64,000 nucleotides of DNA, taken from Candidatus Obscuribacterales bacterium (GTDB lineage: Bacteria > Cyanobacteriota > Vampirovibrionia > Obscuribacterales > Obscuribacteraceae). Made by a program: the position numbers and the translations under genes. Numbering within the stretch: the stretch's first letter is position 1; every line of letters starts with the position of its first letter. The stretch spans positions 635,856-699,855 of the forward strand of contig CBDDIJ010000005.1 in NCBI GenBank assembly GCA_965228855.1, read 5' to 3'. This document shows positions 18,193 through 38,900 of this stretch, piece by piece. Under the pieces are notes generated by a model. It was not told the origin of the DNA. It made no database searches and was given only the letters and a program-made list of their open reading frames with translations.

Positions 18193-21100
18193 CTACCATT
18201 GGAGGGCTACGGTTCTCGGCTTTGTGTGCAGTTCGTAGGCAGGACCGTTTGAAGTCATCTGCATGATCACTGCAGTTGTTTTCAGAACGCCGGCGCGAAC
18301 CTTCCGCGCTTCGCGGTGCTGCGATTGCACGATTGCGGCCAGCGGTTTGATCGCCTGAATGGCAGACGGAACGGAGAATTCACTGGTGAATGCTTTGTGC
18401 CCGTTGCCCAGATCATGGTGAGCCAAACCGCGGTGCATGACGGCTTCCACCGGATTGATTTCCGCGAACTGTTGGACGCTCGAATGCGTGACGATCGCAT
18501 GCTTTCCAGGTGAGAGCGGAATGCTTCTGCCGCCGGCTTCGATCACGACGCTGCGTTTGTGCTGATCATTAACGTCGTAAACCGATAAGTGATTTTGATC
18601 GACAACGACCATCGCCACTGAATCAGCAGCAATCTTAACTCGTCCCTTGGGTGTCACAACCGTGGTATCGGTTTTCGGCACAAAGAGAACGCTACCACTA
18701 TCCATCGTGACGCACTGATTGTGCGAAACCTTGCTCAGAGAGCTCATCAGGCTGTCACCGGATAGCTCGAGGTCGCTGCAGAGTTTGGCATCGACTATCG
18801 TAGCCGTCGGTTCCGAAGTCGACATATAGGAATCATCATGGCCGGGACCACCCGAAGGCACCGTCGCCAGGGTGACACCGCTAGCGGTGCTGGTCAATGA
18901 GGCAAGGCTATCTCCGCCGCTGAACGTTCCGGTGGCATTATTCAACGAGATCAATTGCATCGCTCGCATCTCATTATTCACTGAGAAAGTCGCGACTGGA
19001 TTCGTGATTGCGATCGGCGACATCGTCACCGAACCATCCAGTGAATTCGTGGACAGGTCGTTAAGGGCATTGAGCGTACCGGCTGCGGAACCGGCATTGC
19101 CGAAGGTCCGGATTGTCATCGGTGTTCCTTCTGCTACCGGCGGATCTGCAGTGATGATGTTATTGCCTTCGAAGACTATTGATTTCGGATTGAAGGTACT
19201 GACGTAAACATCAGCGCCCTGTGCGGTGAACACAATACCTCCGGAAACGGCTTGAGCCTTCTTGCCGCCGAAGAGAACGCTACCGCCGTTTTCAACGATG
19301 GTCACGAACTTCTTAGGTGTAGGCGTCTTACGACCTGGTGACTGTGGTGCGCCGAGTACGATGTTGATGTTTCCGAGACCTGGAGTCTTGGCGTTGGTGA
19401 GAACTGAAGAACCATTTCCGAAAACGATGCTATCGCGTTTCTTCGTTGAACCAAGCATCGTGATGTCGATCTGGTCGTGAGCCAAGATTGTGATGCCATC
19501 TGCGATGTCGAGAGTGTCTTGAGTCGCGGTGACAGCGAAGGCACCACCAGTCGAGGTGATGTTCTGGGTCAGATTCAAACCACCGTTTGCTGTCAGATTG
19601 ATGTCACCAGCTGCAGTGATGGCAACGAAGTTCACACCGGCAGTCGATGCGCTGGAGACAAAGAATCCATTACCCGCCGAGCCACCGATTGAAGAAACAT
19701 TCGCCGCTACAAGGAATGGATTATTGGCGTCCGTTCCAACATTTCCACTGACCGAGTTCAACAACAAAGTCGGTGTATTCAGCGTTCCGGTGATGTTGGT
19801 CAGGTCACCGTCCGTGGTGAGTGAAACGCTGGTAGTTCCATTAATCGTGCTGGTCAGGTCGAACGCTCCACCGGTGGCTAATGCGACAACCTGAGCGCTG
19901 TAGTCACCTCCGGAGACGAGATCGCCTGCGGTCGAAACATCAAGAGTGTTTGTCGCGCTGCTGGCGTTCAAAGTCGAGGCTAATGTGTTGGTGTTGTTCA
20001 CAAACACATTTTGACCTTCGACCTGGAAAGTGTTCGCGTTGATTTGCAGTCTGTTCGCGGCATCGACGCCGAGTGACGCGTTGGTATCGAGAACCACGAT
20101 ATCGCCGTTTATGACACCTGCACCGGAGCTGGTCACACCGTCGTCTGCAAAGACATTACTCGTACCGGTTGCGCCAATCGAGTTACTGACAGCTACAGTT
20201 CCATCAGCGACATTAATAGACAACGTACCAACAGTGAAGTCAGAATCAGTTGTCACAGCGCCACTGGTGACGTTGACATTCAATACATCCACGCCTTGCG
20301 AGCTGAGGATCAAGTCGTTAGCTTCGTTGATAGTCAGGGTCACGGCGTTGGCGGTGGTGGACAGGCGGTCGACGTTCGTGCTCAGGGTCACCGGACCGGT
20401 GGCGAAATCGAGGAAGAGCGTTCCGCCCTGTAGGGTGCCTGCAGTCTGCGTGATTGTTCCAGCCGAGCTGAGCTCAACATAGTTGCTACCTCCGACGCTG
20501 GCGTTGAGAACGATATCGCCGGCGGTGGTCGTCAATTCGACAATGCCTATGTTGAAAGCGCTCGTCGCCACAAGCGAGCCACCTGAGCTCACAACCAGGG
20601 ACAAGTCCGAGCCAGTTATTGCGCCAAGGTTGAGGGCGTCAACATCAGATACATCGACGGTACCCAGTCCACTGCTAGAGGCGTTGAGAGTAGCGACAGC
20701 CGTGCTGCCGAGAGTCGCCACGCCGTCGCCGACATTGACAGTCAGATTGTTGGCGCTTATCAGTCCTGGAGTCTGGCTGATCACATCGGTCGCTCCCAGC
20801 GCACCTGTGAGCACGACATTAGCCAGTCCGGCGTCAATCGTGGTGACAATCAAGTCGCCAGCAGTCTGGGCGCCGACTCCGAAACTACCAGAGAGCAATA
20901 CGCCATTCTGGACAGTGATTGGTCCTCCTACGATTGTCGGAGTCGCGACCGCCATGTTGACGTTTCCACTGGCGGTTCCACCGACAGTATTGATGGAGCC
21001 GACGGTGATCCCGCCCGGTCCGGTGATGTTGACATTGCCACCATTCACTGCGCCCGTGGTGTTGATCGTGTGAAGCACGATAGAGCCATCGTTCAGCGTG

Positions 21101-24100
21101 CCTGCGTTGGCGACAGCAGTGAAATTACCGCCGCTGCCAGCCCCGCCGTTCAGATTGATGGTGACGTTGGTCAAGTCGATTGAACCACCGTTGGCATTCA
21201 CTCCGGTTATCGTGAACAAGCCGGGGCTCTGGATCTGACCTGCAGTCGCCGGTGTGAAATCATAGCCCGCCATGAGCGTGAGTGAGCCACTTCCAGTTGG
21301 TCCTGAGAGGTTGATAGAGGTGGAGCCGGTCGTCGTGATATTTCCGGCAGCTAGAATTGCCAGGTTCTGACCGACGAATACCAAATCTGACGGAAGAAGT
21401 ACATCTCCGTTGCTATTAGCAATAGTGCCATTGTTACTGCAAACTATTACGAGCGGATTACCTGTGATAATGCCGTCGAAAGTCAGGTCGCAAGCATTAA
21501 TGGTAGTTCTGTTCACACCAGTCACAACTGCACCGGCATTCACGATGAAATTGTCTGGTTCCGCACCGACAGTAAATGCAGCCTCACCGGTTCCGTTCAA
21601 CAATATGTTTCCGGAGAGATTGATACCGGCTGCCGAGAGGACAGTGAAACCATTGGCAGTCGTGTAGGTGCCGCCGGTCATCGACAGCGCGCCGGCAGTG
21701 TTGAAGACGTTAATCTGATCGAAGTTGGCGCCGACAAGACTGGTCAGATTGCTAGTACCGAGACTCAACGTGCCAGTACCCGAAACGGCTCCATTCAAAA
21801 GTATGCTGCCACCGTTAGTGGTGTCGAGCGTGAAGAAGTCGTTTCCGGCGGTGGCCTGAACGACAACGGTTGAAGTTCCGGCGTAAACGATCGAGACATC
21901 ACCTCCACCTGTGGCGTTCGCAGTCAGAGAGAGAGGATTGGCGCCATTAGTGACGATGAGCTCATTGCCAGATCCACCGATGCCGCCGGAAGCGGCCGTC
22001 ACTGCCAGGTCTCCCGCCGTCAGAGTTCCAGAAGTTTGTTGGATGAAACCGCTTCCACCAGACGTGTCAATCGTCAGCAAAATAGCAGCATCGATGTCGG
22101 CGTCGATTGTCACATTTCCACCAGCGTTTACGATATTGACAAACGAGGCATCAATTGCTCCGGAGATTAGAACGTCTCCAGAAGCGATTTGAGATGCATT
22201 GAGAGCAAATGTTCCGACATCCGCTGATGTGACGTCGATACCATCGCGCTCATTGATAGTCAGTATCTGTGTACTGCCTCCGGTAGCAGTCACTGAGTCG
22301 ACATCTGTTACGAGCGTCACTGGACCGGTCACGAAATCAACGTTCAGAGCGCCACCGATGACGGTGCCGGACGTTTGAGTCAGACCCGCACCGGAGACCA
22401 ACGTCACAGAGTTGGTGCCCGTCACATTCGCATCGAGAGTGAGGCCGGTAGCACCATCAAGACGAACATCCGCGCCGGTCACTGCGATGTCCACCACGAG
22501 ACTGAGATTCGAGCTCGCAATGAAGGTATCCGTAGCCGCAGCGATTGTCTGTAAGTTCAACGCCGAGGTACTGGTGAAATAGACGGATCCGCCTGCACTG
22601 AGTGATGCGGTTGAAGCGTTCACCAACAGATAATCGGTAGATTCGCCGATCGAACCGAGCGCAGATGTGAGGTACAAGTCAGGCGAGTTCAATCCACCCG
22701 TGATATCAGCGTTGACGATGTCGTTCTGCGCATCCAACCGAATCTGGGTCGTAGCTGTCACAGCACCGTCAAGGTCGAACTTGTCCCCTGATTGCAGACG
22801 GACAGCGTTACCGGAGATGGCTCCGGTGCTTGTCAGAACACCGCCCGCGATGGCTTGGAAAACTTCTCCTACTGCGTTTGAAGCTGCCGAGCCACCAGGA
22901 CCGAAATTCATAGCATTTGCATCTTGAACGAAGACAGAACCAGTCGTGGCGTTCGCTGTTATGTTGTCGACATCGACCTGTAGGAAATCGAGACCAACAC
23001 CGATGTCGCCTCCAGTGGAGGTCAAATTGAGTTGCACGACTGGGATGCCGGCTCCTGAATCCAGACCTCCGACTATGTTAGCGTTCAAGATCGAGCCTGC
23101 CGACGAGAGCGTGATGCTGCTGGTTCCTCTGGTCAATCCACTGAGAACCAGGTTGCCAGTAGTTGCGGTCAGAGATACGTAAGCAGCAGAGACGGTACCG
23201 GACGAGGTCAGGTCGTTCACTGCGGTCACGTTGAAAGTACCAACCGCTGACGAAGCCGCCAGATCAACCGAATTAGAGTCGCTGACGAACGCATCTCCGA
23301 CAGATTGAATCGACAGGACAGCAGTATCCACCAAAACACTATTGCCGGAAACACCGATGGGACCAACGGTAGTGACAAGATTAATCCGTGGAGAGACGAT
23401 GTTGTTCATTCCGTCGGCAGCTACGATTCCGTTATCAGAAGATACTGTGACACTTGTCGTACCGGTCACAGCAGCATTTATCTGAACATATTGAGATGAT
23501 CCGGCTATAGCTGTGAAGTCGACGTCAGAAGCATTTACTGTCGAATCGACGGTGATCAATCCGTTCGCATGTAGACTGAAGACTCCCTGAGCGGAGGAGG
23601 CACCACCAACAGTGACAGCGCCGGCGTTCTCAACCCAGACGTTACCGAGTGCAGCATTCAAAGTCACTGTTGTGACGTTTAAAGAAAGCGGATCTAGAGC
23701 AGTTCCGATATCACCGTTGGTCGATGTAGCAACTAAGGTCGGCGTGATCAGCTGACCGAGACCCACGCCATTGAGAATGTCGTCACCGGAAGTGAGCGTA
23801 ATGCTGGTAGTGCCGCTTATCGCATTATTGAAAGTGAAACCGCCTGCCGTGGCTGTCAGGCTAACTGTCGCAGCATCGATAGTGCCATCATTAGAGATGT
23901 TCACGGGCGCTGAGGCTGTAAACGAAGTTGCCGTGGAGGCTCCAGGTCCGATGTTCATAGAGCCCGTGGTGTCGGTCAGCACAACTGTCGTAGCCGATGC
24001 ACTCACGTTTTGGAAATCAGCGGTGACATCTATAGTCGCGCCGGCATTGGTGGCGTTAAGGACAATAGTTGGTGCCGATAGCGGGTTGGCGAAGTTGGCC

Positions 24101-27100
24101 GTCAGGATATCATTGAACGAAATCAACTCAATTCTGGAACCGATCGTCACGGCGCCTGGAATTAAGATGCCACCATTCGCCGAATTCAGATACAAAGAAT
24201 CCGCCACTACAGTCTGGGCAGCCGGCACGGTAATCGTACCAGTTGACCAGAGAGCCAGGTCGCCGGTCACGGTGGACGACCTGAGGTCTATAGCACCACC
24301 GGTGTTGTTGAGATACGCATTATCAGCGCCAGCACTGATCGCCAGAGCGTTGAATGCGAATGCGTTTGCCTGACCTCCCGCCGCGCCGATGTTCCCGTCA
24401 GACTGCAGCACAAGCGATTGAACCGGCAGGCCCACTCCACCATCGAGCACGCCCGAAACTGTGCTTCCGTTGATATCTCCTGCCGAGGTCAAAGAGATTG
24501 TGCCGGCAGCGCGCACTCCACCGTCGAGATCGAAGACACCATTCGTCGCGGTCAAGCTCACCGAGCCGGTCGTCGACTGTATCAATGCGCCGGAGACAGA
24601 GCTCAAATTCTGATTGGCGGTAACGGAAATATCGTTCGCAGCCGAAGAGGCGAGGTAAATCGAAACGCTGTTGGCATCGGAGTATGTCACCGAGCCGGCG
24701 GAGTTGAACTGCAGTGAATCTACATCGAGCACAGAAACATCTATGTCGCCGGACGTTGTGGTGAGATTCGCAGCCAGAACATCGAAGGTGCCGGTCAGAT
24801 CCGCATCAACGATGCCGTTTCCAGAAGTTATGGCAATCGTAGTCCCAATCACCGAGCCCGGAATCTGCACATTCGCGGAAGTGGACGTCAAGTTGGTTAC
24901 CGGTGAAGAAATCGTGCCGGTGACAACGAGAGCGCCAGTTGCATCAACCTCGAAGACCGAACCGGAGAAATTAGTTCCGACGATGTTGAGCGCCCCGGTT
25001 CTGGTGGCATAAACAGAATTTCCCGGAGCTAACAAACTGCCAGCCGATGCCGAAAAGTTGTTTGCGTTTACGACAAAGGAGTCTCCCAGCAATCCGACAC
25101 TTCCAAACGTTGATGTAAGATTGAGAGTATCGGTAAATTGCAGACCGGTTGTAGCACTGTTGGTTATTGGACCACCAGAGCTCAACGTGACGCTGTTGGT
25201 ACCGGTAGTGGTGCCAGTGATTGTGAGGAAACCGCGCGGAGCAGAGAGCAGCAGGTCATTTGCACTCACTGTACTGGCGAGACCAATTACAATGTTTCCG
25301 AACTTCAGGTCCTCATCAGGTCTGGCGAGGTCGAATGTTCCAGTGACGACGCTGTTACCAATTAGATTCAAATCCGGCGAACCGCTGATAGCGTCTGCAA
25401 AAACATATGCTGAGCCACCCGTGTTGACGGTCAAATTGAGCGACTTCGTATTCAAGCGAGACGACGCGTCGGTTCCGATATCGCCGTTCGTGGAGCTGAG
25501 CGTCAAGAATTGCGCGCGGATCTGCGCTCCATTCACAGTATTCATGTCGGTACCGGACGACAAGGAGACGTTCGCGCCATACATATTGGCACCGATCTCC
25601 ATCAGTCCTCCGGCTGTCAAAGATATGTTCGTGATCGTTGGCGGAACGCCAAAGTCTCCAGTCCCGATAAGCCCGGAAGTGGTCAGATCATCGTCAGCTG
25701 TGACTATGAAGTCTAGTGAAGACGTATTAGTTCCGTTGATATTAACCGAGTTCGGGTCATGAACCGAAACGGTTCCGCCCTGGAGATTCAGATTGACGGC
25801 ATCGATATCGAGAGGATTTCCCATTCCTGAACCGATGTTCGCAGCTGCTTTCAAATTGATTTGGTCAGCGCTCAGAATGTTCGGGTTATTGTTTAAAGTG
25901 TTATCGTCGATAGAAGTCGCTGAGTCCAACGTGATCGACTGATTAGCAGTGAGAAGACTGAGTACCAAGATATTGCCGACGGTTGACTTGATAGTGACGT
26001 TCAGAGCATCAACAGTACCACCGAAAAATACCGCGGCATCACCTGTGATATTAAAGTTTTGCGGTGTCGTGACCGTGTTTGGAATTCCCTGAAAGCTCGC
26101 AGTGCCGGTTGCGGTAATGGTGATGTTTCCTGTGGTAGTCTCCAACGACTTGAGAAACAACACATCACCTCCAGTCGAAGTGATGTCGATAGAACCGAAT
26201 GCTGAAATTGTTCCGATACTGCTCAAGGCACTGATAACATCATTAGCTGTGATTTTGACATTGCCTGCGGTGCTGGTTATATCTCCGGCTCCAATTGACA
26301 TAGGACCATCTAAACTGATGTCACCGGGTGCTGTAATGTCGCCCAGAACTACCAGACTGTCATCGCCGGACAGCTTGACGTAGCCGCCGGTTGAGGTAAC
26401 TGGTGCACCTGGGTTCTGGATCATATTTGCCATCGATGTCAACTCGATGTTACGCCCAGCTGTCAGCGGAGCATTGATATCAAAACTGTTGTCTGTTGAC
26501 ACGAAGAAGTCGGTACCTGCGGACGAACCGGCCACAAGCTGAGTATCTATAGACGTCGCAACGTTGGAGACATACACGCCATTAGCAGCGATGAGCAACA
26601 GATTCTCGGCATTCGTAACCACCCTAGAGCCGAGTGAACCAATGCTACCGTTTGTCGATGACAGCGATAGGCTTAGGACTGGATCACCTAAATTGTTCAG
26701 CGCAACCGTTCCAAGCCCGTTAGCAGGAATGGTATTACCTGACGTGAGCGCAACATTTACCCCATACACCGCCCCAGTCAGTCCAAGCGAGCCGTTGGTT
26801 GCTGTGAGCGTGACGTTCGGAGCAGCAATGACACTGCTGGCGGTGCTCAAAATATTATTGGCCGCAATCACTGTGATGTTTGTGTTTGCCGACGCGTTAG
26901 TTATTGTTACCGAGTTCGGATCAACAATGTAGATGTCTCCAGCAGTCGCGGTGGCGCTGAGTCGATTGGCGTCGATATGCAACTGATTGCCCACTGAGCC
27001 AACCGACCCGGAGAATGACAAAAGATTCAATTCCGGCGACACGATCGTAGCGCCAGTGAAACTAGAATCGACTATCGATGCATTGGAAGAAAGGTTAATC

Positions 27101-29829
27101 TGCGAGCTGCCTGTGATCACGCTACCTAGAGAGAGCGAGCCTGCAGAGCTCACAAGCTGAACTATATCTGCGAAAATATTGCTCGTGCTCGAAATATTTC
27201 CGGCGGCGTTGGTCTGAAGTAGATTCGTCACGAACGTGTCGCCACCAGCAAAATTGATGGCCCCGGTACTGCTTATAACCGCATTGTTTGCGGTGACTGC
27301 CACATTGCCACCTGTCAAGCGCGCTGTCACAGTCCCTGTATCAGAGGTCAAGTAAGTTTGAGGAGATGTCACTTCGACGCCCAGCGCGGTATCGATGTTG
27401 CCATTTGCACGCAAGCGCACATCCGTAGTGCCGGTAACATCAGCATCTAGCTGAATCGCACCTGCGGTTGATCTCAAAACCACGTGGTCAGCAATGTGAG
27501 GAACAGCATTAGAAACTGTGAGAAGCCCTGTTGAAGTTAGGTCAGCGGTACCACCGGTCACAAAACCGGAAAGTGAGACATCATCAATGTCGCTAACGTA
27601 GAACGATCCCGTCGGACTATTCACGGCAAGATCATTAGCATCTATCCGAACGCGATTCGATGCGGAACCAATATCTCCGTTAAACGACTCAAGTTCTACT
27701 CGGTCGGAGACCAGTAATGAAGCATTGCCACCACTTACGACTCCGGCGTTCCCGCTGAGATAAATGGAGTTTATAAGAGACGTATTAGTCAACACGACTC
27801 CTGCTCCCAGAGTGATGATGCCATCAGCTGTGATCGATATACCACCCTGGCTTGTCAAATTCTTAGAGATGATGACATCACCGCCGGTAGGCGATGCACT
27901 GTAGGTGAGATTGTTTGGTGAGGTGATATTGCCTGCTGCATCAAAAACAATCGGACCACCAGTGGAAACTGGTTGCGCGGTCACAGCAGAAATCAGTCCG
28001 GATTCTAATACTCCACCTGTGGTATCAATCACACCCAGGCGTATGGCGGTCGTGCTTTGAGCTCCAGCAACGAGGAATACGTCACCATTGGTCCCGGTTC
28101 CGCTTCCACCTGTTCTTATGGTCGTGTTGGAAACGTCAATTCTGCCGGAGTTAAAGTTGAGACCGCTGAAGGCGAACATGGAGACATCGCCACCATTTGC
28201 GTTCCCGCTTGTCCCTCTCGAATCTATCGTGACACCGCTTCCCAGAAGGATACTTCCCCCTGATGAGGAAGCCAATCCTGTCAGGGTTGTTCCGGATGCG
28301 ACAGCACCATTGGTCGATGAAACATTTGTGCCACCAGCAGTCTGTTCTGCGCCAGCAGCCATGAAGATATCGAAGCCGCCTGTCGTTTGTGCGGTACTTA
28401 TCGTGATGTTGTTGGCGCTCGTAATGTTTCCACTTGCAATTATCGCGAGCTTCTCGTTGACGGAAATATCTCCGTTGATGTTGATGTTTCCGGCATTGTT
28501 CTTATATGTCGGGTCACCAGTCAGGCAAACGTTTCCAATATTGAGATCGTCAGTCGACGCACTCAGGTGAGCCTCAGAACCGGTTTGATTTACAGTCCCC
28601 GTCAGCTCGCCGACATCGGCACGCATGATGCCGCCGCCGGCGTTCAAGTTCAACTGTCTCGAAAAATAGTCTCCACCGCGAAGGTTTGTGTTCGAAGAAC
28701 CAACATAATCGGCTGCTCTCACGTTGATGTCGCGACCAGCCGAGAAGGTTCCACCAGCTCCATTCACGTTCAACTCAGCTGTTGAAGAACCATCTATGTT
28801 TATGTCACCGCGCATTGCTTGAACGGCGCCGGAGTTGTTAATCGAAGAAGCGTTGAGATTTACATCGCCCTTCGCATTTACGTTTCCAGTATTGGTCAGA
28901 ACATTGCCGGCACTTAAGGTCAGCGTTCCCCTGGACGTAATAGTTCCGTAGTTTGAAAGATTTCCGCTAGCTAGCAGTCCCAAACTGCTGTCGGCGGTGA
29001 TGCTGGCGCCGAGTTGGTTGACGATGTCGTCAGCGCGAATAACTCCACCGTTGCGTCCGTTTCCATAGGTGTAAACGGTACCCGCGTTATTTAAGTCACC
29101 GAGCAATTTGAAGTCGGAGCGCTTGCTGAAGTCACCATATGTAGTGACGTTCACAGGAACCGTTAAATCGGTAGCGCGCAGTACATCGTTATTTGCCGTG
29201 ATAGCACCGAGGTCCACCTCGCCGCCTGTCGCAGCTCCCTTACCGTCGATGACAATCTTTTGCGAGCTGCCGGAGAGAATTTGTTTAACAGCTATGTATT
29301 CGGCGGCGCTAACCTGTGAACCGGCAGCAACAGTTTTTGTCTCGCCACCAACATTGATCTCGACTGATAGCTTATTGTCGAACAGGTTGCGACCAAGTGT
29401 GATGTTTCTCACATCAGAACCAAGGTCCAGATTGACGCCATTGCGAAGATTCACCAGGGTACCATCGCCGCCCTGCACTGACTGATTGATGACGCCCTGC
29501 CGCTCCAATCTACGACTGAGGCGATCCATTCGAATCGTGTCTACTGAGTTCGAAACCGACGGGACGGCTAGATTGTTTCCGCCGCCTCCTATTGTAGGAA
29601 CAGCAATCGTGTTGACTGCCGCTCCCCGATGTTGTCCGAATTCCTGGCGGAACATCTGACGAGCAGCCTGTCTATCGATGCCAGGATTCTGTTCTCTAAA
29701 GTCGCGGAAAGATGGTCGATCGACGTCTGCGGCATGCGCTTGCATAGCCGACGCGAACAACGAACCACTTATTACCGCGATCCATTGTTTTACGAATGAC
29801 TTTCTTACTTTGACTGCCTTCTTACTCAT
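18193..29829 (-). CDS. giant secreted beta-helix-repeat protein, paralog 1 (3878 aa), unclassified family
   Basis: Uninterrupted 11,637-nt ORF. ATG has GAGGA 8 nt upstream. Signal peptide is MSKKAVKVRKSFVKQWIAVISGSLFASAMQAHA|AD. The conserved N-domain, Cys-free repeats, Cys module (INACDL...VIVCSNNG) and C-terminal FecR-like segment ending ...KPRTVALQW are collinear with the two neighbours. Confidence 0.9.
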   Translation of the reverse strand: MSKKAVKVRKSFVKQWIAVISGSLFASAMQAHAADVDRPSFRDFREQNPGIDRQAARQMFRQEFGQHRGAAVNTIAVPTIGGGGNNLAVPSVSNSVDTIRMDRLSRRLERQGVINQSVQGGDGTLVNLRNGVNLDLGSDVRNITLGRNLFDNKLSVEINVGGETKTVAAGSQVSAAEYIAVKQILSGSSQKIVIDGKGAATGGEVDLGAITANNDVLRATDLTVPVNVTTYGDFSKRSDFKLLGDLNNAGTVYTYGNGRNGGVIRADDIVNQLGASITADSSLGLLASGNLSNYGTITSRGTLTLSAGNVLTNTGNVNAKGDVNLNASSINNSGAVQAMRGDINIDGSSTAELNVNGAGGTFSAGRDINVRAADYVGSSNTNLRGGDYFSRQLNLNAGGGIMRADVGELTGTVNQTGSEAHLSASTDDLNIGNVCLTGDPTYKNNAGNININGDISVNEKLAIIASGNITSANNITISTAQTTGGFDIFMAAGAEQTAGGTNVSSTNGAVASGTTLTGLASSSGGSILLGSGVTIDSRGTSGNANGGDVSMFAFSGLNFNSGRIDVSNTTIRTGGSGTGTNGDVFLVAGAQSTTAIRLGVIDTTGGVLESGLISAVTAQPVSTGGPIVFDAAGNITSPNNLTYSASPTGGDVIISKNLTSQGGISITADGIITLGAGVVLTNTSLINSIYLSGNAGVVSGGNASLLVSDRVELESFNGDIGSASNRVRIDANDLAVNSPTGSFYVSDIDDVSLSGFVTGGTADLTSTGLLTVSNAVPHIADHVVLRSTAGAIQLDADVTGTTDVRLRANGNIDTALGVEVTSPQTYLTSDTGTVTARLTGGNVAVTANNAVISSTGAINFAGGDTFVTNLLQTNAAGNISSTSNIFADIVQLVSSAGSLSLGSVITGSSQINLSSNASIVDSSFTGATIVSPELNLLSFSGSVGSVGNQLHIDANRLSATATAGDIYIVDPNSVTITNASANTNITVIAANNILSTASSVIAAPNVTLTATNGSLGLTGAVYGVNVALTSGNTIPANGLGTVALNNLGDPVLSLSLSSTNGSIGSLGSRVVTNAENLLLIAANGVYVSNVATSIDTQLVAGSSAGTDFFVSTDNSFDINAPLTAGRNIELTSMANMIQNPGAPVTSTGGYVKLSGDDSLVVLGDITAPGDISLDGPMSIGAGDITSTAGNVKITANDVISALSSIGTISAFGSIDITSTGGDVLFLKSLETTTGNITITATGTASFQGIPNTVTTPQNFNITGDAAVFFGGTVDALNVTIKSTVGNILVLSLLTANQSITLDSATSIDDNTLNNNPNILSADQINLKAAANIGSGMGNPLDIDAVNLNLQGGTVSVHDPNSVNINGTNTSSLDFIVTADDDLTTSGLIGTGDFGVPPTITNISLTAGGLMEIGANMYGANVSLSSGTDMNTVNGAQIRAQFLTLSSTNGDIGTDASSRLNTKSLNLTVNTGGSAYVFADAISGSPDLNLIGNSVVTGTFDLARPDEDLKFGNIVIGLASTVSANDLLLSAPRGFLTITGTTTGTNSVTLSSGGPITNSATTGLQFTDTLNLTSTFGSVGLLGDSFVVNANNFSASAGSLLAPGNSVYATRTGALNIVGTNFSGSVFEVDATGALVVTGTISSPVTNLTSTSANVQIPGSVIGTTIAITSGNGIVDADLTGTFDVLAANLTTTSGDIDVSVLDVDSLQFNSAGSVTYSDANSVSIYLASSAANDISVTANQNLSSVSGALIQSTTGSVSLTATNGVFDLDGGVRAAGTISLTSAGDINGSTVSGVLDGGVGLPVQSLVLQSDGNIGAAGGQANAFAFNALAISAGADNAYLNNTGGAIDLRSSTVTGDLALWSTGTITVPAAQTVVADSLYLNSANGGILIPGAVTIGSRIELISFNDILTANFANPLSAPTIVLNATNAGATIDVTADFQNVSASATTVVLTDTTGSMNIGPGASTATSFTASAPVNISNDGTIDAATVSLTATAGGFTFNNAISGTTSITLTSGDDILNGVGLGQLITPTLVATSTNGDIGTALDPLSLNVTTVTLNAALGNVWVENAGAVTVGGASSAQGVFSLHANGLITVDSTVNASDVDFTAIAGSSQYVQINAAVTGTTSVTVSSDNGIVAADGMNNIVSPRINLVTTVGPIGVSGNSVLVDTAVLSIQSVGDAFVSDSNSVDLAASSAVGTFNVTAVNDLTSSGTVSAAYVSLTATTGNLVLSGLTRGTSSITLSSAGSILNANIVGGLDSGAGIPVVQLNLTSTGGDIGVGLDFLQVDVDNITANATTGSVFVQDANAMNFGPGGSAASNAVGEVFQAIAGGVLTSTGAISGNAVRLQSGDKFDLDGAVTATTQIRLDAQNDIVNADITGGLNSPDLYLTSALGSIGESTDYLLVNASTASLSAGGSVYFTSTSALNLQTIAAATDTFIASSNLSLVVDIAVTGADVRLDGATGLTLDANVTGTNSVTLVSGAGLTQTSGTVIGGALNVDFVTGPVTLVTDVDSVTATGGSTQILTINERDGIDVTSADVGTFALNASQIASGDVLISGAIDASFVNIVNAGGNVTIDADIDAAILLTIDTSGGSGFIQQTSGTLTAGDLAVTAASGGIGGSGNELIVTNGANPLSLTANATGGGDVSIVYAGTSTVVVQATAGNDFFTLDTTNGGSILLNGAVSGTGTLSLGTSNLTSLVGANFDQINVFNTAGALSMTGGTYTTANGFTVLSAAGINLSGNILLNGTGEAAFTVGAEPDNFIVNAGAVVTGVNRTTINACDLTFDGIITGNPLVIVCSNNGTIANSNGDVLLPSDLVFVGQNLAILAAGNITTTGSTSINLSGPTGSGSLTLMAGYDFTPATAGQIQSPGLFTITGVNANGGSIDLTNVTINLNGGAGSGGNFTAVANAGTLNDGSIVLHTINTTGAVNGGNVNITGPGGITVGSINTVGGTASGNVNMAVATPTIVGGPITVQNGVLLSGSFGVGAQTAGDLIVTTIDAGLANVVLTGALGATDVISQTPGLISANNLTVNVGDGVATLGSTAVATLNASSSGLGTVDVSDVDALNLGAITGSDLSLVVSSGGSLVATSAFNIGIVELTTTAGDIVLNASVGGSNYVELSSAGTITQTAGTLQGGTLFLDFATGPVTLSTNVDRLSTTANAVTLTINEANDLILSSQGVDVLNVNVTSGAVTTDSDFTVGTLSINVADGTVAVSNSIGATGTSNVFADDGVTSSGAGVINGDIVVLDTNASLGVDAANRLQINANTFQVEGQNVFVNNTNTLASTLNASSATNTLDVSTAGDLVSGGDYSAQVVALATGGAFDLTSTINGTTSVSLTTDGDLTNITGTLNTPTLLLNSVSGNVGTDANNPFLVAANVSSIGGSAGNGFFVSSASTAGVNFVAITAAGDINLTANGGLNLTQNITSTGGAFAVTATQDTLDIADGITILAHDQIDITMLGSTKKRDSIVFGNGSSVLTNAKTPGLGNINIVLGAPQSPGRKTPTPKKFVTIVENGGSVLFGGKKAQAVSGGIVFTAQGADVYVSTFNPKSIVFEGNNIITADPPVAEGTPMTIRTFGNAGSAAGTLNALNDLSTNSLDGSVTMSPIAITNPVATFSVNNEMRAMQLISLNNATGTFSGGDSLASLTSTASGVTLATVPSGGPGHDDSYMSTSEPTATIVDAKLCSDLELSGDSLMSSLSKVSHNQCVTMDSGSVLFVPKTDTTVVTPKGRVKIAADSVAMVVVDQNHLSVYDVNDQHKRSVVIEAGGRSIPLSPGKHAIVTHSSVQQFAEINPVEAVMHRGLAHHDLGNGHKAFTSEFSVPSAIQAIKPLAAIVQSQHREARKVRAGVLKTTAVIMQMTSNGPAYELHTKPRTVALQW
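19510..28420 (-). repeat. degenerate protein-level repeat body of giant gene 1 (long ~95-100-aa units, a ~20-aa-period block at ~25900-26470, interrupted by the conserved Cys module at ~20825-21520)
   Basis: Recurrent anchors such as L.L.S..G.IG....L.IDA..L......G.VYV.D.NSV. The composition is N/T/S/G/A/V/D/L/I-rich with almost no K/R/E/aromatics and no Cys outside the module. Boundaries are approximate. Confidence 0.7.
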
Positions 29830-29924: not shown

Positions 29925-32900
29925 TTACCATTTGAGTGCCACCGTCCTTGGTTTGGCGTGGAACTCGTACGGAGTGTTGGAAGACAACTGCATGATGATT
30001 GCGGAAGTCTTCAAGACACGCTCCTTAACTTTCTTCGCCTGACTGTGATTCGAAAGAATCATCGCCGAAAGCGGTTTAATACATTGAATTGCCCCAGGAA
30101 CGGAAAATTCGCTCGTAAACGCTCGATGTCCGTTGCCGAGCTCATGGCGGCTCAAACCTCGGTGCATGATCGATTCAACTGGATTGATGTCGGAAAACTG
30201 CTCGACACCAGCATGAGTTATGACTGCGTGGCTACCGGGCGATAACGGTATGCTACGACCGGCCGCCTCAACAACTACGCTGTTTTTATGCAGATCGTTA
30301 ACGTCGTAAACGGAGAGATGAGTGTCTTCTACTACCACCATTGCGACTGCGTTTGCAGCGACTTTGACCTTGCCCTTCGGCGTGACGACAGTCGTGTCGC
30401 TCGTCGGAGCAAAGAGAACACTGCCGGAATTTACGGAGACAACAGCGCTATGTTTCATCTTCTCGACACCGTTGAAACCGACATCGCCAACAAATTCGAT
30501 ATCGCTGCAGATGCTCGCATTGACCATCGTTCCCTGAGGCGAAGTCGTAGTCATGTATGAGTCATCGACTTGCGAAACAGCTACTGTACTCAGATCGCCG
30601 CTCGTGAGAGCGCCGGAAGCGCCAGATGTAATCGTTGCGTTGTTCATAGATATGTTCTGGACACCTTGAAGAACGGACGCTCCCAAACCGCTCAGGCTGG
30701 TAGAGTTCGCGGGTAGCAAGTTCAGCGCTGTATTGAGGGAGGAGATGGAACCAAGTTCGTTCGAAATTGTTGCGGTTCCAAGAGCACCAGGTTGGGAATC
30801 TCCGCCAACACCGGCAAATTGACGAATAAGAACCGGCGTTCCTTCGGCAACTGGAGGGTCAGCAGTTATAGTGACGTTGCCCTCGAATACAATCGATTTC
30901 GGATTGAAGGTGCTGACATAAACATCTGCGCCCTGCGCGGTGAACACGTTCCCTGGCGCCGCAGCCTGAGCTTTCTTACCGCCGAAGAGCACGCTTCCGC
31001 CATTCTCAACGATCGTTACGTTCTTCTTGGGCGTCGGAATTTTGTTACCGGGAGATTGGGGAGCACCAAGGACAATGTTTATATTGCCGAGCCCAACTGT
31101 TTTCGCATTCGTCAAAACTGATGAGCCCGCACCGAATACGATCTTATCCCGCTTCTTAACCGTTCCGACTTGAGTTATATCGATCTGGTCATGAGCCAGG
31201 AGAGTAATACCATCTGCAATATCAAGCACGTCTTGAGTGGCTTGAATGGCGAGCGCGCCACCGGTCGATGTGATGTTCTGAGTGAGGTTCAATCCCCCGT
31301 TTGCCTTCAGCGATATATCGTCACCAGCGGTGATCGCAACAAAGTTGACTCCACCGGTTGCGGCACTTGTGACGAAGAAACCACCACCTGCGGTTCCACC
31401 TATAGACGTAACGTTTGCAGCCACCAGGAAGGGGTTATTCGCGTCGGTACCGACATTGCCGCTTACTGAGTTAAGGAGTAAAGTCGGAGTGTTCAGTGTT
31501 CCTGTGATGTTGGTCAGGTCACCATCCGTGGTGAGCGATACGCTGGTCGAGCCATTTATAGTGCTGGTGAGATCGAAGGCTCCACCAGTCGAGAGAGCGA
31601 CTACAGCCGCGCTGTAGTCGCCGCCGGAGACCAGATCTCCAACCGTTGACACATCTAGAGTGCCTACAACTGAACTCGCGTTGAGCGTTGACGCTGCAAC
31701 GTTATTGTTGTTGACGAAAACATTTTGGCCCGAAACCTGGAAAGTGTTGGCATTGATTTGCAGCTTATCCGAGGCATCCACACCAAGCGCGGCATTTGTA
31801 TCCAGAGTGACGGCGTCGCCGTTTATCACTCCCGTGCCGCTAGATGTAACGCCATCATCGGCGAACACGTTTGTGGTTCCTGTAGCTCCGATGCTATTTG
31901 ATACGGCAAAGGTTCCGTTTGCAACATTGACCGTGAGGTCATCGACCGTGAAGTCTGAGTTCGTAGTGACAGCGCCGCTAGCTACGTTTACAGTCAGGAC
32001 GTCAACGCCCTGAGTGTCCAGGATCAAGTCGTCGGTCTCATTGATAGTCAGATCAGTAGAGCCGGTTCCCGCGTTCGACAACAGTGTCGAAACGCTCGTG
32101 TTCAAGGTCACTGGTCCGTTGTTGAATGTGATGCTGAACTGACCACCACCAACAACGCCGCTTGTTTGAGAGATTGTTCCATCCGCGTTGAACGTGATGA
32201 ACGTAGCGCCGGAGACATTGCCGTTCAACAGTATGTCGCCGCCTGCTGACGTCTGAAGATTCAGATTATCTATGTTGATGGCGTTGGACGTGGTCGAAAT
32301 CGTTCCGCTTGCGCTTACATCGAGATCTTGCGTGGCTCCTACGATGTTATTGAGCACAATCGGACCTGTTTGGTTAAGCAAACTAATCGTGCCGCTTCCA
32401 TTGGTATTCAACTCATTCAGTCCAGAGTTGGATATTGTTGCCGCACCATCACCGACATTTACGTTCAAACGATTGGCGTTTACGCTCTGCACGTCGATAT
32501 TATCGAGTGCGCCGAATGCACCTAGAAGGGTCACGTCCCCAGTCCCGGCAACGAGAGAGTTAACCGTCAGATCGCCACTGGTAGCCGTACCGACTCCAAA
32601 ACTTCCAGTAAGAACTAAACCGTTTTGAACCGTTACCGGACCACCGACTATGGTCGGATTCGCCACGCTCAGTGCTACATTCCCGCTGTTCGTTCCACCG
32701 TTGGTGGTGACCGAGTCGATCGTAATACCGCCAGGAGCAGTAACCGTCACGTTGCCACCATTTATGGTGCCCGTAGTGTCGACGGTACCAAGGATGACGG
32801 AACCATCATTCAACGATCCGGCATTTGCAACTGCCACGAGGTTGCCACCACTGCCAGTGCCACCTGAAAGAACTATATCGACGTTAGTTAAATCAATCGA

Positions 32901-35900
32901 CCCGCCATTGGCGCTGACGCCGGTGATCGTATACAAGCCAGGTCCCTGAATCTGACCGGCGGTAGCCGGTGTGAAGTCATAGCCAGCCATCAACGTCAAC
33001 GAGCCGGAGCCACTGGCTCCGGACAAGTTAATCAAGGTTGAGCCGGTGGTAGTGATGTTGCCGGCGGCGAGAATCGCCAGATTTTGACCGACAAATACTA
33101 GATCGGAGGGAAGCAGCACATCGCCTGTACTGTTGGCGATTGTTCCATTATTCGAGCAAACGATCACTAGCGGATTGCCGGTGATAGTTCCATTGAATAC
33201 GAGGTCGCAAGCATTGACAGTGAGCTTGTTCGTGCCTGTCACTGTCGCGCCGGCGTTGACGATAAACTGATCCGGTTCGTCGCCAACGCTGAACACTGCG
33301 TCGCCAGCTCCGTTCAGAAGAATTGCACCTGACAGGCTGATCCCGTGAGATGACGTCGCACTAAAGCCGTTTGCCGTCGTGTAAGTTCCACCAGAGATGG
33401 AAAGTGCACCAGCAGGTGAGTTATTGATGTTTATCTGGTCGAAGTTAGCAACAGAGCCGCTCGTCAAATTGTCCGTCGTGAGGCTGAGCGTGCCACTTCC
33501 TGCTATATTTCCGGCAAGCGCTATGCTGCCACCATTATCAGTGTCGATAGAGACGAAATCATTACCAGCCGATGCTTGAACGTTTACAGTTCCAGTACCC
33601 GAGTAAATTACGGATATATCACCACCACCAATTCCATTTGCCGTCAGCGATACAGGGTTAGCACCATTAGTGAAGACCAACTCATTGCCGCCAGTACCGA
33701 TTCCACCGATACCTGCAAGAACCGTTAGTGACGGTGTCAAAAGCAGTCCATTTGTTTGTTGAATAGACCCGCTGCCCCCACCCTGAGTATTGAGTGTCAT
33801 GGCGGTCGTCGCAGTGATGTCGTGGTCGATCAGAATGCTTCCGTTGTTATTAATGATATTCAGCGTGGCAACTGTGAAGTCACCTCCTGTAGTGACATTG
33901 CCGCCGCTGACCTGAGAAGCATTTATGTTGAGAGTTCCAACTGCTTGCGCGAGCAACTCGATGCCGTCAGCCTCATTGATGGTCAGAATTTGACCAGAAC
34001 CACCCAGCGTCGCTAACTTCGCAGCATCCGTAGTGAGGGTTACCGGACCGGTGACGAATGAGACAGCCAAATCGCCGGTATTGATTGAGCCTGCTGTCTG
34101 AACCAGGGTGCCACCGGAAACGAGGGATGTTCCCGTGGACGCATCTATAGTACGAGCTATCGACAGGCTGTTACCGGCATCAAGAATGACGATGGGGGCA
34201 GTCAAATTGACTCCGTTGTCTTGAACAAGAAGTGTCGTGGCCGCAGCAACCGACAGGGTACCGGTCGCGGACGAATCGGACCTCAGCGTCAGAGAATTCG
34301 AATCATCGACATAAACGGAACCGGAAAACGCGTTCGCCTTTAAAACATTCGTATCGATGGAAAGCGGCGCTAGTTCAGCTCCAATATCACCTGTGAGAGC
34401 AACCAGGTTGAGAGCCGCCGCATTCAATCCGCCGGAAATATTCGAGTTCGCGATGCCCGTTCCAGAGTTCAGCGTTATGCTCGCGACAGCATTGACTGCG
34501 CCATCCAGGTCAAAACCACCATCTGCAATCAGGGTTACGTCCTGACCACCAATAGTCGAAGAACTGCTGATGTCGCCGGTCGAGACGGCTACAAAAGCGT
34601 TGCCGGCCGAGGAAGCTCCACCACCGAAGTTAACGTTTCCTGATTCGTCGCTTAGGAAAACGGAGCCTGTCGCATTTGCTCGAATGTTAACAGCATCAAA
34701 GCTGAAGTAGTCGACGCTGGCACCGATATCACCGGCGGTGACGTTCAGATTCAGCTGGTTGACCGGAACGCCCAAGCCGGACATCAATTCGCCTATAACG
34801 TTCGAGTTCAAAATCGAGTTAGCAGAGGTCAGCGAAATGCTGTTGACGCCGATGATGTCATCATTAATCTGCAAAGTTCCAGTGTTAGCGAACAGCGCCA
34901 CATCAGTTCCAATCAATTCGCCGGCCGTGGTCAGGTTGACATTCGACGAAATCTGCAGAGTGTTCATCGCAGACGATTCATTTACGATGAGAGATCCGAC
35001 GGGTTTCGTGACAAAGGCTGAGTCAGCCGAATGCACGGACACAGTTCCTGCAGTGATGGAAATAGGCGTAGCAAGCGTCCCTATGCTTCCTGTGGTCGTA
35101 ATCAAGTTGAGTACCGGAGTCGTGATGGTCGACGCCAGGTCGGCCGAGACGATTCCCGCATCAGAAGCAATCGTGACCTGGCTCGTACCAGCGATTGCTG
35201 CGTTTACCGCGATATGACCGCCGCTGCCATCCTTTGCTTTCAATGTCACGTCGCTAGCTGAGATCGGCGCCGCAACGGTGATTGTCCCTTGAGCGGTCAA
35301 ACTGAACGCTCCAGCAGCGCCTGATGCTCCACCTACACCGAGAGCCTGAGAGTTCTCAACCCAGACAGAGCCGAGAGGCGCATTGAGCGTCACAGAAGAT
35401 ACGCTCAAAGTCAGCGGGTCAAGCGCCGCGCCGATATTTCCTGTGGTTGACGTAGCAATCAATGTTGGGGTCACGAGTTGACCAGCACCGACTCCATTAA
35501 GGATGTCATCGTTGGAGGTCAGTGTAATACTCGTGGTTCCCGAGATGACGTTATTGAATGTGAAACCGCCTGTGGTGGCGTTCAAATTCACATCGATGGC
35601 ATCTATAGTCCCATCGTTCGAGAGGCTTCCGGAGGTCGCTGTGAATGTCGTGCCCGCCGACGATGGCGCCGATCCGATGTTCATGGAACCAGCTGTGTCG
35701 GTCAAATTAACGAAGGTTGCCGCATTGGCAGTGACGGTTGAGAAGTCAACTGTCGTCACGTTAATACTACTTGTATCCGAAGTCAAATTGATGACCGGTG
35801 AACTAAGTCCACCAAGAATTGATGAATCATCGATCGCCCCATTGGCGGTCAAATTGATGTTGCTAGTTCCGGTCACCAGCGCATTGAGCGTCAGAGAGCC

Positions 35901-38900
35901 GCCCAGGGCCGTTAAATGAACGTCCTTAGCCGAGATGGTTCCAAGTGCACCGACCGTGAGATTGTTTGGCGCTGTCAGATCGAAGATATAGGAAGCTCCT
36001 GCGGAACTCGGTCCGGAGACGTTGACATCACCTGCGGTATCAGTAATGAACACGTCATTAGCAGCCACTGCGACCAGGTTGGTTGCATCAATTTCAAGCG
36101 GTGATGAAGGAATCGAACCAATACTTCCAGCGGTCGAAACAAGCGTCAGGTTTGGTACAGAACCGCCCAGTCCATCGCTCAAGCCGCCACTGATGCTATC
36201 GTTCAATATAGATCCGAACGAAGTGAGAGTAATGCTGTTGCTTCCTTCGACGCTGCCATCCAGGTCCAGAATGCCCGAGGTGGAGGTCAAGCTCACATCC
36301 GCACCAGAAATTGTGCCGGAACTGCTGAGGTCGCCAGTGCTCTCAACGGATGCAGTGGCAGACGCACTGCCGGTGAGGACATTCAGCGCACCGTTGTTCT
36401 CAACATATGCACTACCAGCTGCGGCTGAGAAAGTTAATGCTGACGTGGCTAACTGGATAGGAGCGAGGCTAGAGCCGATACTTGTTGCAGAGTCAAGCAC
36501 TACGGAAGGCGCGAGGATTGTTCCCACCGGTAAATCCGTAGCACTAATGCTGGATGCACTGATTTCAACAAAGTCCGAACTGCTTACCGAGCCGGTAATT
36601 GAAACAGTTCCCGCAGCGACAAGCATTACAGGCTCGCCCGATACCGTACCTGGTACCGTGATGTTGCCGGCGCTCTGCAAGGAGAACATACCCATGGCAG
36701 CTGAACCGCCGACCAGAGCTATATTCGCATTGTTGGAGATAACGTTTACAAAACCTGTCGGCGCGTTGAGAGTTAGTGACTGTACGTTAGTAGAAACCAG
36801 TACTGGCGCGACATCTCCCACATTGCCGTTGGTAGAGGTGACGGACAGTGTAGGAGTAAAAACGGAATTTAGTTGATTAGCTGCTGTGAAACTCTCGTAG
36901 GCTGTCAACATCGCTGAAGATGACGCTACAGCCAGCGAAACTGTAATAGCACCGTTGGTGGATGAAGCGACCAGTGAAGCGACGTCCACATCTAATAGAT
37001 GCAAGTCCCCTTCAGCCCTGATATCCAAAAGACCACCTTCCGCAATCGAAACTGTGGTGTTGCCTACGGCATCCAGGTAATCGGAACCAGTTACAAGCGA
37101 CACAACGCTCGGCGACGATAGCTTAAGTCTGCCACTAACCGATCCGACATTGCTGGCAGACAACTGCACCTGTCCAGTTGCCGTCACGAGAGAGCCGGAA
37201 TCAACTATGACATCACCGGTTGCAGAAAAGCGCGTGACGCGCGAGGTTATGCTTCCCCCGAACTGAATGTTGGCAGAAGAAGAAAGCCTGACGATGTCTG
37301 CAGTTATTTCAGCAGTCAGCGTGAGCCCAGTGGTTCCAAGCACTGAGAACGTCTGGAGCAGATTGGTTCCAGCAGAATTGATTCCTGTCAGGTTTACGCT
37401 GTTCGGATCGACTACATAAACCATTCCTGTCGGTGCATTCAACGTCAAGTTCACGGCATCGATATCAAGCTCATTACCGCTTGACCCAATCGAGCCATTC
37501 GTAGAGGTCAAATTGATTTGCGGCGCCGATAGAGCCGTTGGGCTTCCTAAGTTGACATCGCTAATATTATCGAAAGAGGTGAGGGAGATAGTGTCTGTCG
37601 CGGTTACCTGATTGACGAAAACACTACCAAGAGAAGACTCGATGGCGACATTGCGACCGCTGATTGGCTGGTAGGTGAAAACTGAAAGACTACCGGAGAG
37701 AGAGACGTCCCGCCCGGCGGTTACATCTTCGTTGATGAACAAATTGGCCGTCGTAGATGTAATTCGTACGTCGCGTCCAGCACTAAGAACTTTGTTGATG
37801 TAAATCGAATCAACCGAGTCCAAGATGATGTCACCGTTAGTGGCGGTTAATAGCTCATTAGCAAAGATGCTGTCGTTTGAGCTGATATTGATATTTCCTG
37901 CGGCAGTGATGTTGCCGTTCAAGAAAACACTATCTCCGGGAGTTGAGTTCGACTCTATAACAATGTTGCCGCCTGCATCAATTCGTCCGGCAAAAACCGA
38001 ACCACCTGAAGTTTGCGCGGTGACGTTACCGCTAGCGCTAACATCCTGATTCAGAAAAATACTGCTACCAGCTAGAAGGCTTATGTTGCCTCCAGTAGTC
38101 GACAATGGAACATCGTTAATGGAGAGAGAGTTGGCGGAGTCAAAAATTATATTGCGACCAGCGCTCACACCACTGCCGTCCGCAGTGAGGGAACCACCAG
38201 TAGTTGAATAGCTAAAATCAAGACCCGCGACACCCTGAATAAAGCTCGTAGAAATGGCACTATTCGTCAGAGTGACGCTACCTGCGGCACTAGCGTCGAC
38301 AAAGGTAGCATTGATCGCAAGCGGTTGTCCAAGCGAGCCGATGCTACCGTTAACGGAAGCGAGAGTGAGGTCAAATACTGTTGCGCCACTGCCGGCCAGA
38401 CCACCAACAATACTGCCCGCGGTGATGCTGTTCAAAGACGTCAATGAAATCGAGTCGGTTCCAGTCACCAGGCCGTTCAAACCGAGACTGCCATTGGTTG
38501 CTTGAAGAACAACATCGGTGGCTGAAATTGAGCCATCGCTCAGGATGTTGTTGTTGGCCGTTACGCTAAAATCGAACAGCGCAGTACTGGTTCCAACGGT
38601 GACAGTATTGGGGTCGCTGAAATAAACGTTATTAGCTTGAAGAGTAACATGGTTTGCGTCCAGTAACAGAGGCGTCGCGCTTGTGCCGATGTCTCCTGCG
38701 GTGGACGTGATTTGAAGGTTCGGACTAGTTAGAACTCCAGTTATAGAGGAATTCAAAATGTTTCCAGCGGCGGTTAGCGATATAAAGTTCGAAGCAGTCA
38801 GGTTACTGGCGATGTTCAATGAACCGCTTGCGATAAACGACAGCTGATTTCCGCTCACACTGCTGGTAGTCGAAAGGTTGGCAGCGTTTACCTGGAGAGT

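Follow-up and report, generated by a model that had tools for sequence, protein, structure and literature searches.

In the classical (type Va) autotransporters, a Sec signal, a beta-helical passenger and a linker are followed by a 12-stranded barrel, and the passenger is covalently joined to that barrel. In two-partner secretion (FhaB/TpsA with TpsB), giant haemagglutinin-like beta-helical fibres with conserved N- and C-terminal ends are produced, and the C-terminal prodomain of FhaB is retained in the periplasm. Type 11 secretion (Slam) combines variable cargo, a shared C-terminal domain and an adjoining gene for a dedicated outer-membrane protein (OMP), while in LapA-type adhesins a folded periplasmic domain is the stopper that tethers a giant adhesin via an outer-membrane pore. 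Here, we analyzed a 64,000-nucleotide stretch of DNA (hereafter the window; contig CBDDIJ010000005.1, positions 635,856 to 699,855 of the forward strand) from a Candidatus Obscuribacterales bacterium (GCA_965228855.1), a member of a non-photosynthetic sister lineage of cyanobacteria, in which three giant minus-strand genes stand in tandem and end in one shared C-terminal domain (CTD). What is new here is that, in relatives of this organism, CTD genes abut genes for an unannotated 12-stranded outer-membrane barrel, and that the two families co-vary between genomes. We regard the CTD as a C-terminal domain for docking or sorting that is unannotated and specific to the order, and for which the barrel is a candidate partner. 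The specific reading that we favor, with a probability of roughly 0.5, is that it acts as a constant docking module coupling variable Sec-exported cargo to the 12-stranded barrel.

The sequence-only reading of the window had described a non-repeat C-terminal region of about 440 residues common to the three giant proteins, and this was confirmed. An alignment of the last ~500 residues recovered every motif it had listed (TNAK..GLG, VENGG, FTAQGAD, ITADPPV, D(D/N)SYM, (L/I)C(S/T)D.E, GSVLF, DTTVV(T/S)PKG, HLSVYDVND.HK and KP(R/K)TVAL.W-stop). The region is indeed shared by all three proteins, but rather than a single unit it consists of three separate modules (Table 1), whose coordinates were all checked by translation. 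The first is a 125-residue end cap that closes the beta-helical shaft and ends in ITADPPV..GTP, the second is a low-complexity spacer of 83-88 residues rich in S/T/A/G/N, and the third is the compact CTD of ~215 residues. With 64-85% identity between paralogs and orthologs, the last 170 residues are the best-conserved segment of the giant proteins; the repeats reach 38-58% and the spacer, the least conserved segment, 29-42%. Conservation of the C-terminal region is far above chance. Among the 30 paralogs in the source genome, 25 carry an ADPP-type cap motif 104-176 residues (median 134) ahead of the CTD core. The cap hidden Markov model (HMM) also matched CTD-less paralogs with the same ~480-residue N-domain, in which the stop lies 3 residues past the cap.

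The CTD represents a large uncatalogued family restricted to Obscuribacterales. Zero matches at E<=1 were found in Pfam and NCBIfam for the CTDs of the three proteins, and sequence searches of the PDB with profiles of the three CTDs and of diverse members yielded nothing meaningful. The profile made from the three window copies detected 30 copies in the 8.2-Mb source genome, all at the extreme C-terminus, in open reading frames (ORFs) spanning 344 to 9534 residues. A database search for other proteins with this C-terminal domain then defined the family, with 1,451 representative clusters in the global library (50% identity), 909 of them at E<=1e-10, and the domain always C-terminal; in 111 of 153 proteins, five or fewer residues lie beyond the CTD profile. 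The carriers are Sec-signal proteins of 219 to 14,400 aa. CTDs occur in 33 of 41 sampled Obscuribacterales genomes, covering all 19 genera, with up to 55 copies per genome and ORFs of up to 14,400 codons, and were not found in 200 other genomes of the phylum. The longest examples are the CTD ends at G024:C12:216755-217381, G024:C12:217956-218579 and G023:C5:128684-129151, which terminate ORFs of 14,400, 10,978 and 13,976 codons; these ORFs, convergent or neighboring, are among the longest in bacteria.

The presence of so many conserved CTD paralogs would fit binding to one common self component, not to diverse targets. The earlier suggestion that conserved C-termini make a toxin tip of the contact-dependent inhibition type unlikely was sound and is strengthened by the family data. 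A CTD that forms the target-binding far end of the fibre, as an adhesin or lectin head resembling the mature FHA C-terminal domain, is also quite improbable. The mature C-terminus is distal in two-partner-secreted fibres and the CTD is globular and conserved, as such a head might be, but its conservation holds across 30-55 paralogs while the shafts diverge, and it is found as well on tiny shaftless proteins encoded beside the barrel gene. In addition, the nearest CTD folds are periplasmic docking domains, and there was no lectin or adhesin family match to the CTD.

In order to place conserved positions on the domain, residues were numbered along P0001:3660-3878. D96, P115 and K191 are invariant over 142 diverse CTD members, and G53, P59, T67, G70, G116, N133, R141, E158, F159, S177, T192, A194 and A216 are more than 90% conserved. 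Invariant or near-invariant polar residues such as D96, N133 (in an N-P pair) and K191-T192 are what might be expected of a domain that cleaves itself or the spacer and thereby releases the fibre. Regulators of the FecR/FoxR type do self-cleave, at a Gly-Thr bond in the FecR family, and the FhaB prodomain is removed. Self-processing of this kind is nonetheless very improbable for the CTD, which has no conserved Gly-Thr pair; the Pro after N133 is only 69% conserved, a possible metal-site His falls below 75%, and the weak cupin matches amount to a 28-residue hairpin. A cupin identity was itself considered and rejected. Weak MPI_cupin_dom matches occurred in 25 of 142 members (best E 0.003) and covered only that hairpin, weak MPI_cupin and AraC_binding_2 matches were seen in about a quarter of members, the candidate metal-ligand His is conserved in at most 74% so that cupin ligands are not preserved, and no cupin structures appeared among the Foldseek matches of the CTD.

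The AlphaFold2 model of the CTD, computed from the 142-sequence alignment, had a mean pLDDT of 95.8 and a pTM of 0.90. It comprises about twelve strands, a three-helix segment (161-199) and a final strand (213-216) formed by R-T-V-A of the TVAL motif. The beta segment that had been located at 18485-18725 in gene 1 corresponds to CTD residues 43-122 and coincides with the strand run of this model. What had been described as a helical-looking tail does contain three helices, but two long strands precede them and the last strand, the terminal R-T-V-A, follows. In the model, the last strand of the soluble domain is therefore built from the terminal residues. This, together with the limited distribution of the terminal Trp, led us to reject a terminal-Trp sorting motif or an outer-membrane beta-signal, of which the earlier reading had been reminded. 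The Trp is shared by the three window proteins and a few close relatives and is not invariant in the family at large; it occurs in 4 of the 30 local paralogs and in 7 of 150 representatives of the family, and 84 of those 150 end in K or R.

A FecR-like fold had also been suggested for this region, and the suggestion received partial, weak support at the level of structure and none at the level of sequence. Foldseek comparison of the CTD model to the PDB gave zero matches at E<=0.001. The best four matches, all with probability 1.00, were FecR-type periplasmic domains (4m0n, 4m0h chains A and B, and 6ovk_R). The putative anti-sigma factor BDI_1681 (4m0n, 4m0h) matched at E 0.003-0.01 over 92-97 columns with a TM of 0.27-0.29, and the PupR C-terminal cell-surface signaling domain (6ovk_R) at E 0.025 over 62 columns with an rmsd of 2.1; remaining matches had a probability of 0.28 or less, except for one 51-column match at 0.72. 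In the ESM Atlas, the structural neighbors of the cluster nearest two CTD members were all FecR-domain proteins (TM 0.47-0.58). Our verdict from these models is that the CTD is a predicted FecR-like beta-sandwich with a helical extension of its own. Judged by sequence, it is not a member of PF04773. The three C-termini had no match to that family at E<=1, PF04773 was not among the 25 most frequent Pfam families over the 142 CTD members and was absent in 10 further members, and genuine FecR proteins of the source genome score 28-32 bits on the same model. Comparison by hhalign of the diverse CTD alignment to 17 and to 10 FecR domains of the order gave probabilities of 0.8-0.9%, which is a weak negative, as the FecR alignment used was shallow and misses PDB FecR structures too.

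The regulators of the FecR/PupR type (PF04773; 6ovk, 4m0n) thus provide the only consistent structural matches to the CTD beta-sandwich, and they are of interest for what they bind. In PupR, the domain lies in the periplasm and its binding partner is the periplasmic domain of a barrel protein of the outer membrane; contact of this kind is the known role of the FecR/PupR fold (PMC7186176). The CTD differs from these regulators in several respects: it has no sequence-level relationship to them, a helical bundle and terminal strand take the place of the STN-like subdomain, the anti-sigma and transmembrane parts are missing, it is joined to secreted cargo or takes its place, and its candidate partner is a 12-stranded barrel, unlike the TonB-dependent transducer of FecR/PupR systems. 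The giant proteins also fall outside the class of FecR-type sigma regulators, as they carry a cleavable Sec signal and a beta-helical shaft and their neighboring genes are unrelated.

The FecR-like fold also bears on whether the CTD might be a periplasmic signaling module that reports the state of the fibre or barrel to a CHASE2 histidine kinase or a Ser/Thr kinase sensor. Periplasmic FecR-domain proteins are known partners of CHASE2 kinases (PMC5192318). In the source genome, the most divergent CTD paralog (C3:561344-562453) is a 370-aa protein made up of a signal peptide, a basic Pro/Lys-rich linker and the CTD. Its gene sits immediately upstream of those encoding a genuine PF04773 protein (514-aa ORF) and a CHASE2 histidine kinase (C3:561344-567428). 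Ser/Thr kinase genes also recur, with fifteen of them (bearing LRR or TPR repeats, and one a receiver fusion) located no more than 8 kb from 7 of the 30 CTD genes, for example in the flanks at C3:2206583-2209201, C3:3415456-3417036 and C3:1499044-1507384. A signaling role is nevertheless improbable. The CTD-FecR-CHASE2 arrangement was kept in a same-genus genome and not in four other genera, CTD proteins have no transmembrane or anti-sigma part, and a genome would hardly be expected to hold 30 to 55 near-identical sensors. As the kinase family is abundant, chance may account for its recurrence, and the Ser/Thr and histidine kinases near CTD genes were judged non-specific.

A candidate partner emerged from gene order outside the source genome. 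No consistent neighbor gene was seen around the window array or the 30 local CTD paralogs, whereas in ten other genomes one type of gene was repeatedly found next to CTD genes, immediately downstream of the end that encodes the CTD. Its product has a signal peptide and ~300 core residues with alternating-hydrophobic strands. Six of these partner OMPs had zero Pfam matches at E<=1, and the family comprises 341 database homologs, all labeled 'hypothetical' and all from Obscuribacterales, with no Pfam or NCBIfam entry; at 341 homologs for the barrel and 1,451 clusters for the CTD, both families deserve database models. The protein is modeled as a 12-stranded beta-barrel with pLDDT >90 throughout the barrel, preceded by a short helix and followed by a helix. 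At E<=0.001 the model returned 232 matches to barrels in the PDB, among them OmpG, PcoB, a COG4313 channel, FapF (a polypeptide transporter) and the translocators of the autotransporters NalP and EstA, and the ESM Atlas places it, by features and structure, near the BBP2_2, DUF2860 and SlipAM/DUF560 clusters. FapF, the Pseudomonas amyloid transporter, resembles the new barrel in its 12 strands and in the helix before the barrel (TM by target 0.44-0.53), and it passes unfolded polypeptide; the two share no sequence relationship, their substrates differ, and no CTD-like partner of FapF is known.

The barrel family, detected in 38 of the 41 genomes, falls into two grades, one of them single-copy and the other higher-scoring and present in 1-6 copies, hereafter type-1. 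The single-copy ('housekeeping') type occurs even in genomes without CTD proteins, and in the source genome its gene is convergent to that of a 924-aa TPR-CHAT protein (C3:1060000-1068000). The type-1 barrel of the source genome is a 625-aa ORF with a C-terminal extension of ~250 aa, followed on the same strand by genes for a TolC-like OEP and a HlyD-like membrane-fusion protein (C2:1336000-1346000). In some relatives, the barrel is part of a fusion ORF of 1100-1385 aa that matches no Pfam family.

The surroundings of 34 type-1 barrel genes were inspected. Approximately 20 of these genes, spread over at least 10 genomes, have a CTD gene as their immediate neighbor, an adjacency for which the chance expectation is ~0.1-1.5% per gene. 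The barrel gene often lies on the same strand, straight after the CTD-coding end, with a gap of 4-90 bp (G017:C22, G004:C1, G004:C10, G021:C44 and G008:C1); further same-strand pairs with such gaps were found at G008:C5, G023:C20, G016:C1 and G009:C23. In G004, all 3 CTD genes adjoin one each of the 3 type-1 barrel genes. Six of the partners are small proteins that contain only a signal peptide, a short linker and the CTD, without N-domain or shaft, and the barrel is therefore linked to the CTD itself and not to the N-domain or shaft. Presence and absence across the 41 genomes agree with this linkage, as 29 genomes have both type-1 barrel and CTD, 7 have neither, 1 has the barrel only and 4 have the CTD only (three of these marginal), and the pattern differs inside three genera, indicating gains or losses. 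The N-domain has a similar, slightly poorer profile (27 of 41 genomes), and G015, G025 and G035 have CTD and barrel without it. The genomic context of two small CTD homologs from the database contained no partner. In a midpoint-rooted CTD tree, barrel-adjacent CTDs branch deep, which is suggestive only and was not used.

The linkage between CTD and barrel can be accommodated by a second explanation, which is the main rival to docking. The CTD could be an export tag, as in type 11 (Slam) or type 9 secretion, with the barrel recognizing it as a C-terminal signal and the CTD crossing the outer membrane with its cargo. The logic would be that of type 11 and type 9 cargo (Sec signal, variable body, constant C-terminal domain and OMP-adjacent genes), the barrel lies near the BBP2_2 and SlipAM/DUF560 clusters in the ESM Atlas, and the small proteins that are nearly CTD only resemble small cargo. 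We consider this unlikely, and the evidence fits it about half as well as docking. The type 11 system has been described in Proteobacteria only, with a different cargo domain (10.1101/2024.09.26.615229). The new barrel has 12 strands instead of the 14 of Slam, lacks TPR repeats and has no PF04575 or SlipAM match, and a folded domain of 215 residues would not fit through a 12-stranded pore. The CTD itself had no TbpB-like matches, and its model, a beta-sandwich with helices, differs in fold from the 8-stranded cargo barrel of type 11. It is equally distinct from the type 9 domain, an Ig-like domain of ~80-100 aa (Por_Secre_tail), for which there was no Pfam or NCBIfam match at E<=1; the CTD is longer, at 170-215 aa, and differs in predicted architecture. 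Finally, the nearest fold relatives of the CTD are periplasmic.

The ~480-residue N-domain HMM detected 45 ORFs in the source genome, and weak Fil_haemagg matches occur in paralogs of the giant proteins. TpsB/ShlB (PF03865) was not found in the 8.2-Mb, 95% complete genome, which has a single Omp85 gene, and these ~45 haemagglutinin-like fibres therefore need another route. The TPS domain (PF05860) was likewise not seen, with zero Pfam families in residues 1-500 and a negative genome-wide search in which the control genomes were silent too; a genome-wide search for PF04575 (Slam) was also negative, with controls silent as well. While the giant haemagglutinin-like beta-helical fibres and their conserved N- and C-terminal ends recall two-partner secretion, the locus differs from it in that neither a TPS domain nor ShlB/TpsB was found and in that the partner barrel is 12-stranded, without POTRA domains.

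Because the FecR/PupR fold contacts an outer-membrane barrel protein (PMC7186176), and because TpsB, the TPS domain and Slam were not found and only one Omp85 is present, we read the CTD as a docking module. In the proposed sequence of events, the CTD would fold in the periplasm after Sec export and would there bind the dedicated 12-stranded outer-membrane beta-barrel. The spacer of ~85 residues would pass through the barrel or lie alongside it, and the fibre would be displayed outside the cell, held by its C-terminus, with the CTD acting as a stopper on the periplasmic side. The function would equal that of an autotransporter whose barrel is a separate polypeptide; put another way, it would amount to the reuse of a FecR-to-OMP contact as an anchor. 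Type Va autotransporters likewise have a Sec signal, a beta-helical passenger and a linker, and the new 12-stranded barrel resembles those of NalP and EstA, whereas here the barrel is a separate gene product and the C-terminus of the passenger, according to the model, is a soluble domain and not a barrel in the same polypeptide. The retention proposed for the CTD would be similar to that of the FhaB prodomain. The proposed stopper resembles the one of LapA-type adhesins, but LapA is a type 1 secretion substrate with an N-terminal retention module and a TolC-like channel, while the present proteins are Sec-dependent and have a C-terminal module and a small candidate barrel.

Several observations weigh against docking. 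The only type-1 barrel gene of the source genome (C2:1341101-1342219) lies beside none of its 30 CTD genes and, as it is single and unlinked, one barrel would have to serve 30 proteins. About 14 of the 34 type-1 barrel genes had no CTD neighbor within 6 kb, and the division between type-1 and single-copy barrels is itself an author-chosen threshold (E<1e-90). Eighteen of the N-domain paralogs have no CTD; they end at the cap, and the CTD is therefore not needed to make a fibre. The similarity between CTD and FecR is partial and weak, covering 62-97 residues at TM 0.23-0.29 and E 0.003-0.025, and was seen by no sequence method (Pfam, hhalign). In addition, while the module boundaries, the family with its distribution, the fold resemblance and the linkage and co-occurrence with the barrel genes were observed, the side of the outer membrane on which the CTD would lie, its contact with the barrel, the threading of the spacer and the anchoring role are proposals.

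Tentatively, and at less than even odds, the CTD and the 12-stranded barrel may be extended to the two defining parts of an undescribed Obscuribacterales display or secretion system, which could be termed a 'split autotransporter'. Dozens of cargos per genome, from 220 to 14,400 residues long, would then be recognized via the FecR-fold CTD, and a shared small barrel would export or tether them, in a lineage without TpsB. A very large share of the Obscuribacterales genome goes to haemagglutinin-like fibres, with ~45 genes and no recognizable exporter here, and the CTD, being genetically coupled to a barrel, is a testable candidate for how fibres arrive at the surface and are retained there. If true, the role of the FecR fold in contacting outer-membrane barrels would extend from signaling to surface display. 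A literature search on giant genes or haemagglutinins of Obscuribacterales found nothing relevant.

Of the eighteen N-domain proteins that lack a CTD, about ten measure ~940-1140 aa, and in at least two of these the stop comes 3 residues past an ADPP-type cap; five more are ~1700 aa long and have Gly-rich GGxGG repeat ends. Examples are located outside the window at C2:1159632-1162736, C5:806740-809856 and C5:1622691-1625513 of the source genome.

Within the window, the ORF list gave stop-free translations for all three giant genes of the array (Table 1), each with a basic Sec-type signal peptide at the N-terminus. No Pfam or NCBIfam family was returned for the C-terminal, N-terminal or repeat parts of the giant proteins, and source names for these proteins include 'hypothetical', 'S-layer family protein' and 'filamentous hemagglutinin'. 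A near-identical copy of the locus is present in a public Candidatus Obscuribacterales metagenome-assembled genome (MAG), and a related-locus search with the alignment of the three CTDs recovered this sister MAG only.

Table 1. Position and make-up of the three giant fibre genes and their C-terminal modules, in window coordinates.
Feature	Position	Strand	Details	Basis
Giant fibre gene 1	18193..29829	-	3878 aa; signal peptide, ~480-aa conserved N-domain, repeat shaft, cap, spacer, CTD	ORF list, translation, N-domain HMM
Gene 1 shaft end-cap module	19117..19491	-	125 aa, ends in ITADPPV..GTP	Cap HMM, coordinates by translation
Gene 1 low-complexity spacer	18853..19116	-	88 aa, S/T/A/G/N-rich	Paralog identity
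Gene 1 CTD	18196..18852	-	219 aa; conserved core 18196-18705 = last 170 aa	Alignments, AlphaFold, Foldseek
Giant fibre gene 2	29925..41576	-	3883 aa	ORF list, translation
Gene 2 shaft end-cap module	30831..31205	-		Cap HMM, translation
Gene 2 spacer	30582..30830	-	83 aa	Paralog identity, translation
Gene 2 CTD	29928..30581	-	218 aa	Alignment, profile search, translation
Giant fibre gene 3	41676..54128	-	4150 aa from upstream TTG	ORF list, translation
Gene 3 shaft end-cap module	42585..42959	-		Cap HMM, translation
Gene 3 spacer	42336..42584	-	83 aa	Paralog identity, translation
Gene 3 CTD	41679..42335	-	219 aa	Alignment, profile search, translation

The true start of gene 3 is probably the Met of MSKKSVRV at 53933, giving a product of ~4085 aa, because the database ortholog P0005 (4087 aa) begins at MSKKSVRV. 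The 65 codons between the upstream TTG and this conserved start (54128 to 53934) are probably untranslated, since orthologs begin at the Met. Just upstream of the giant array, on the same strand (54420-55526), lies a gene for a 368-aa protein whose only match is a weak one to the Clp_N repeat.

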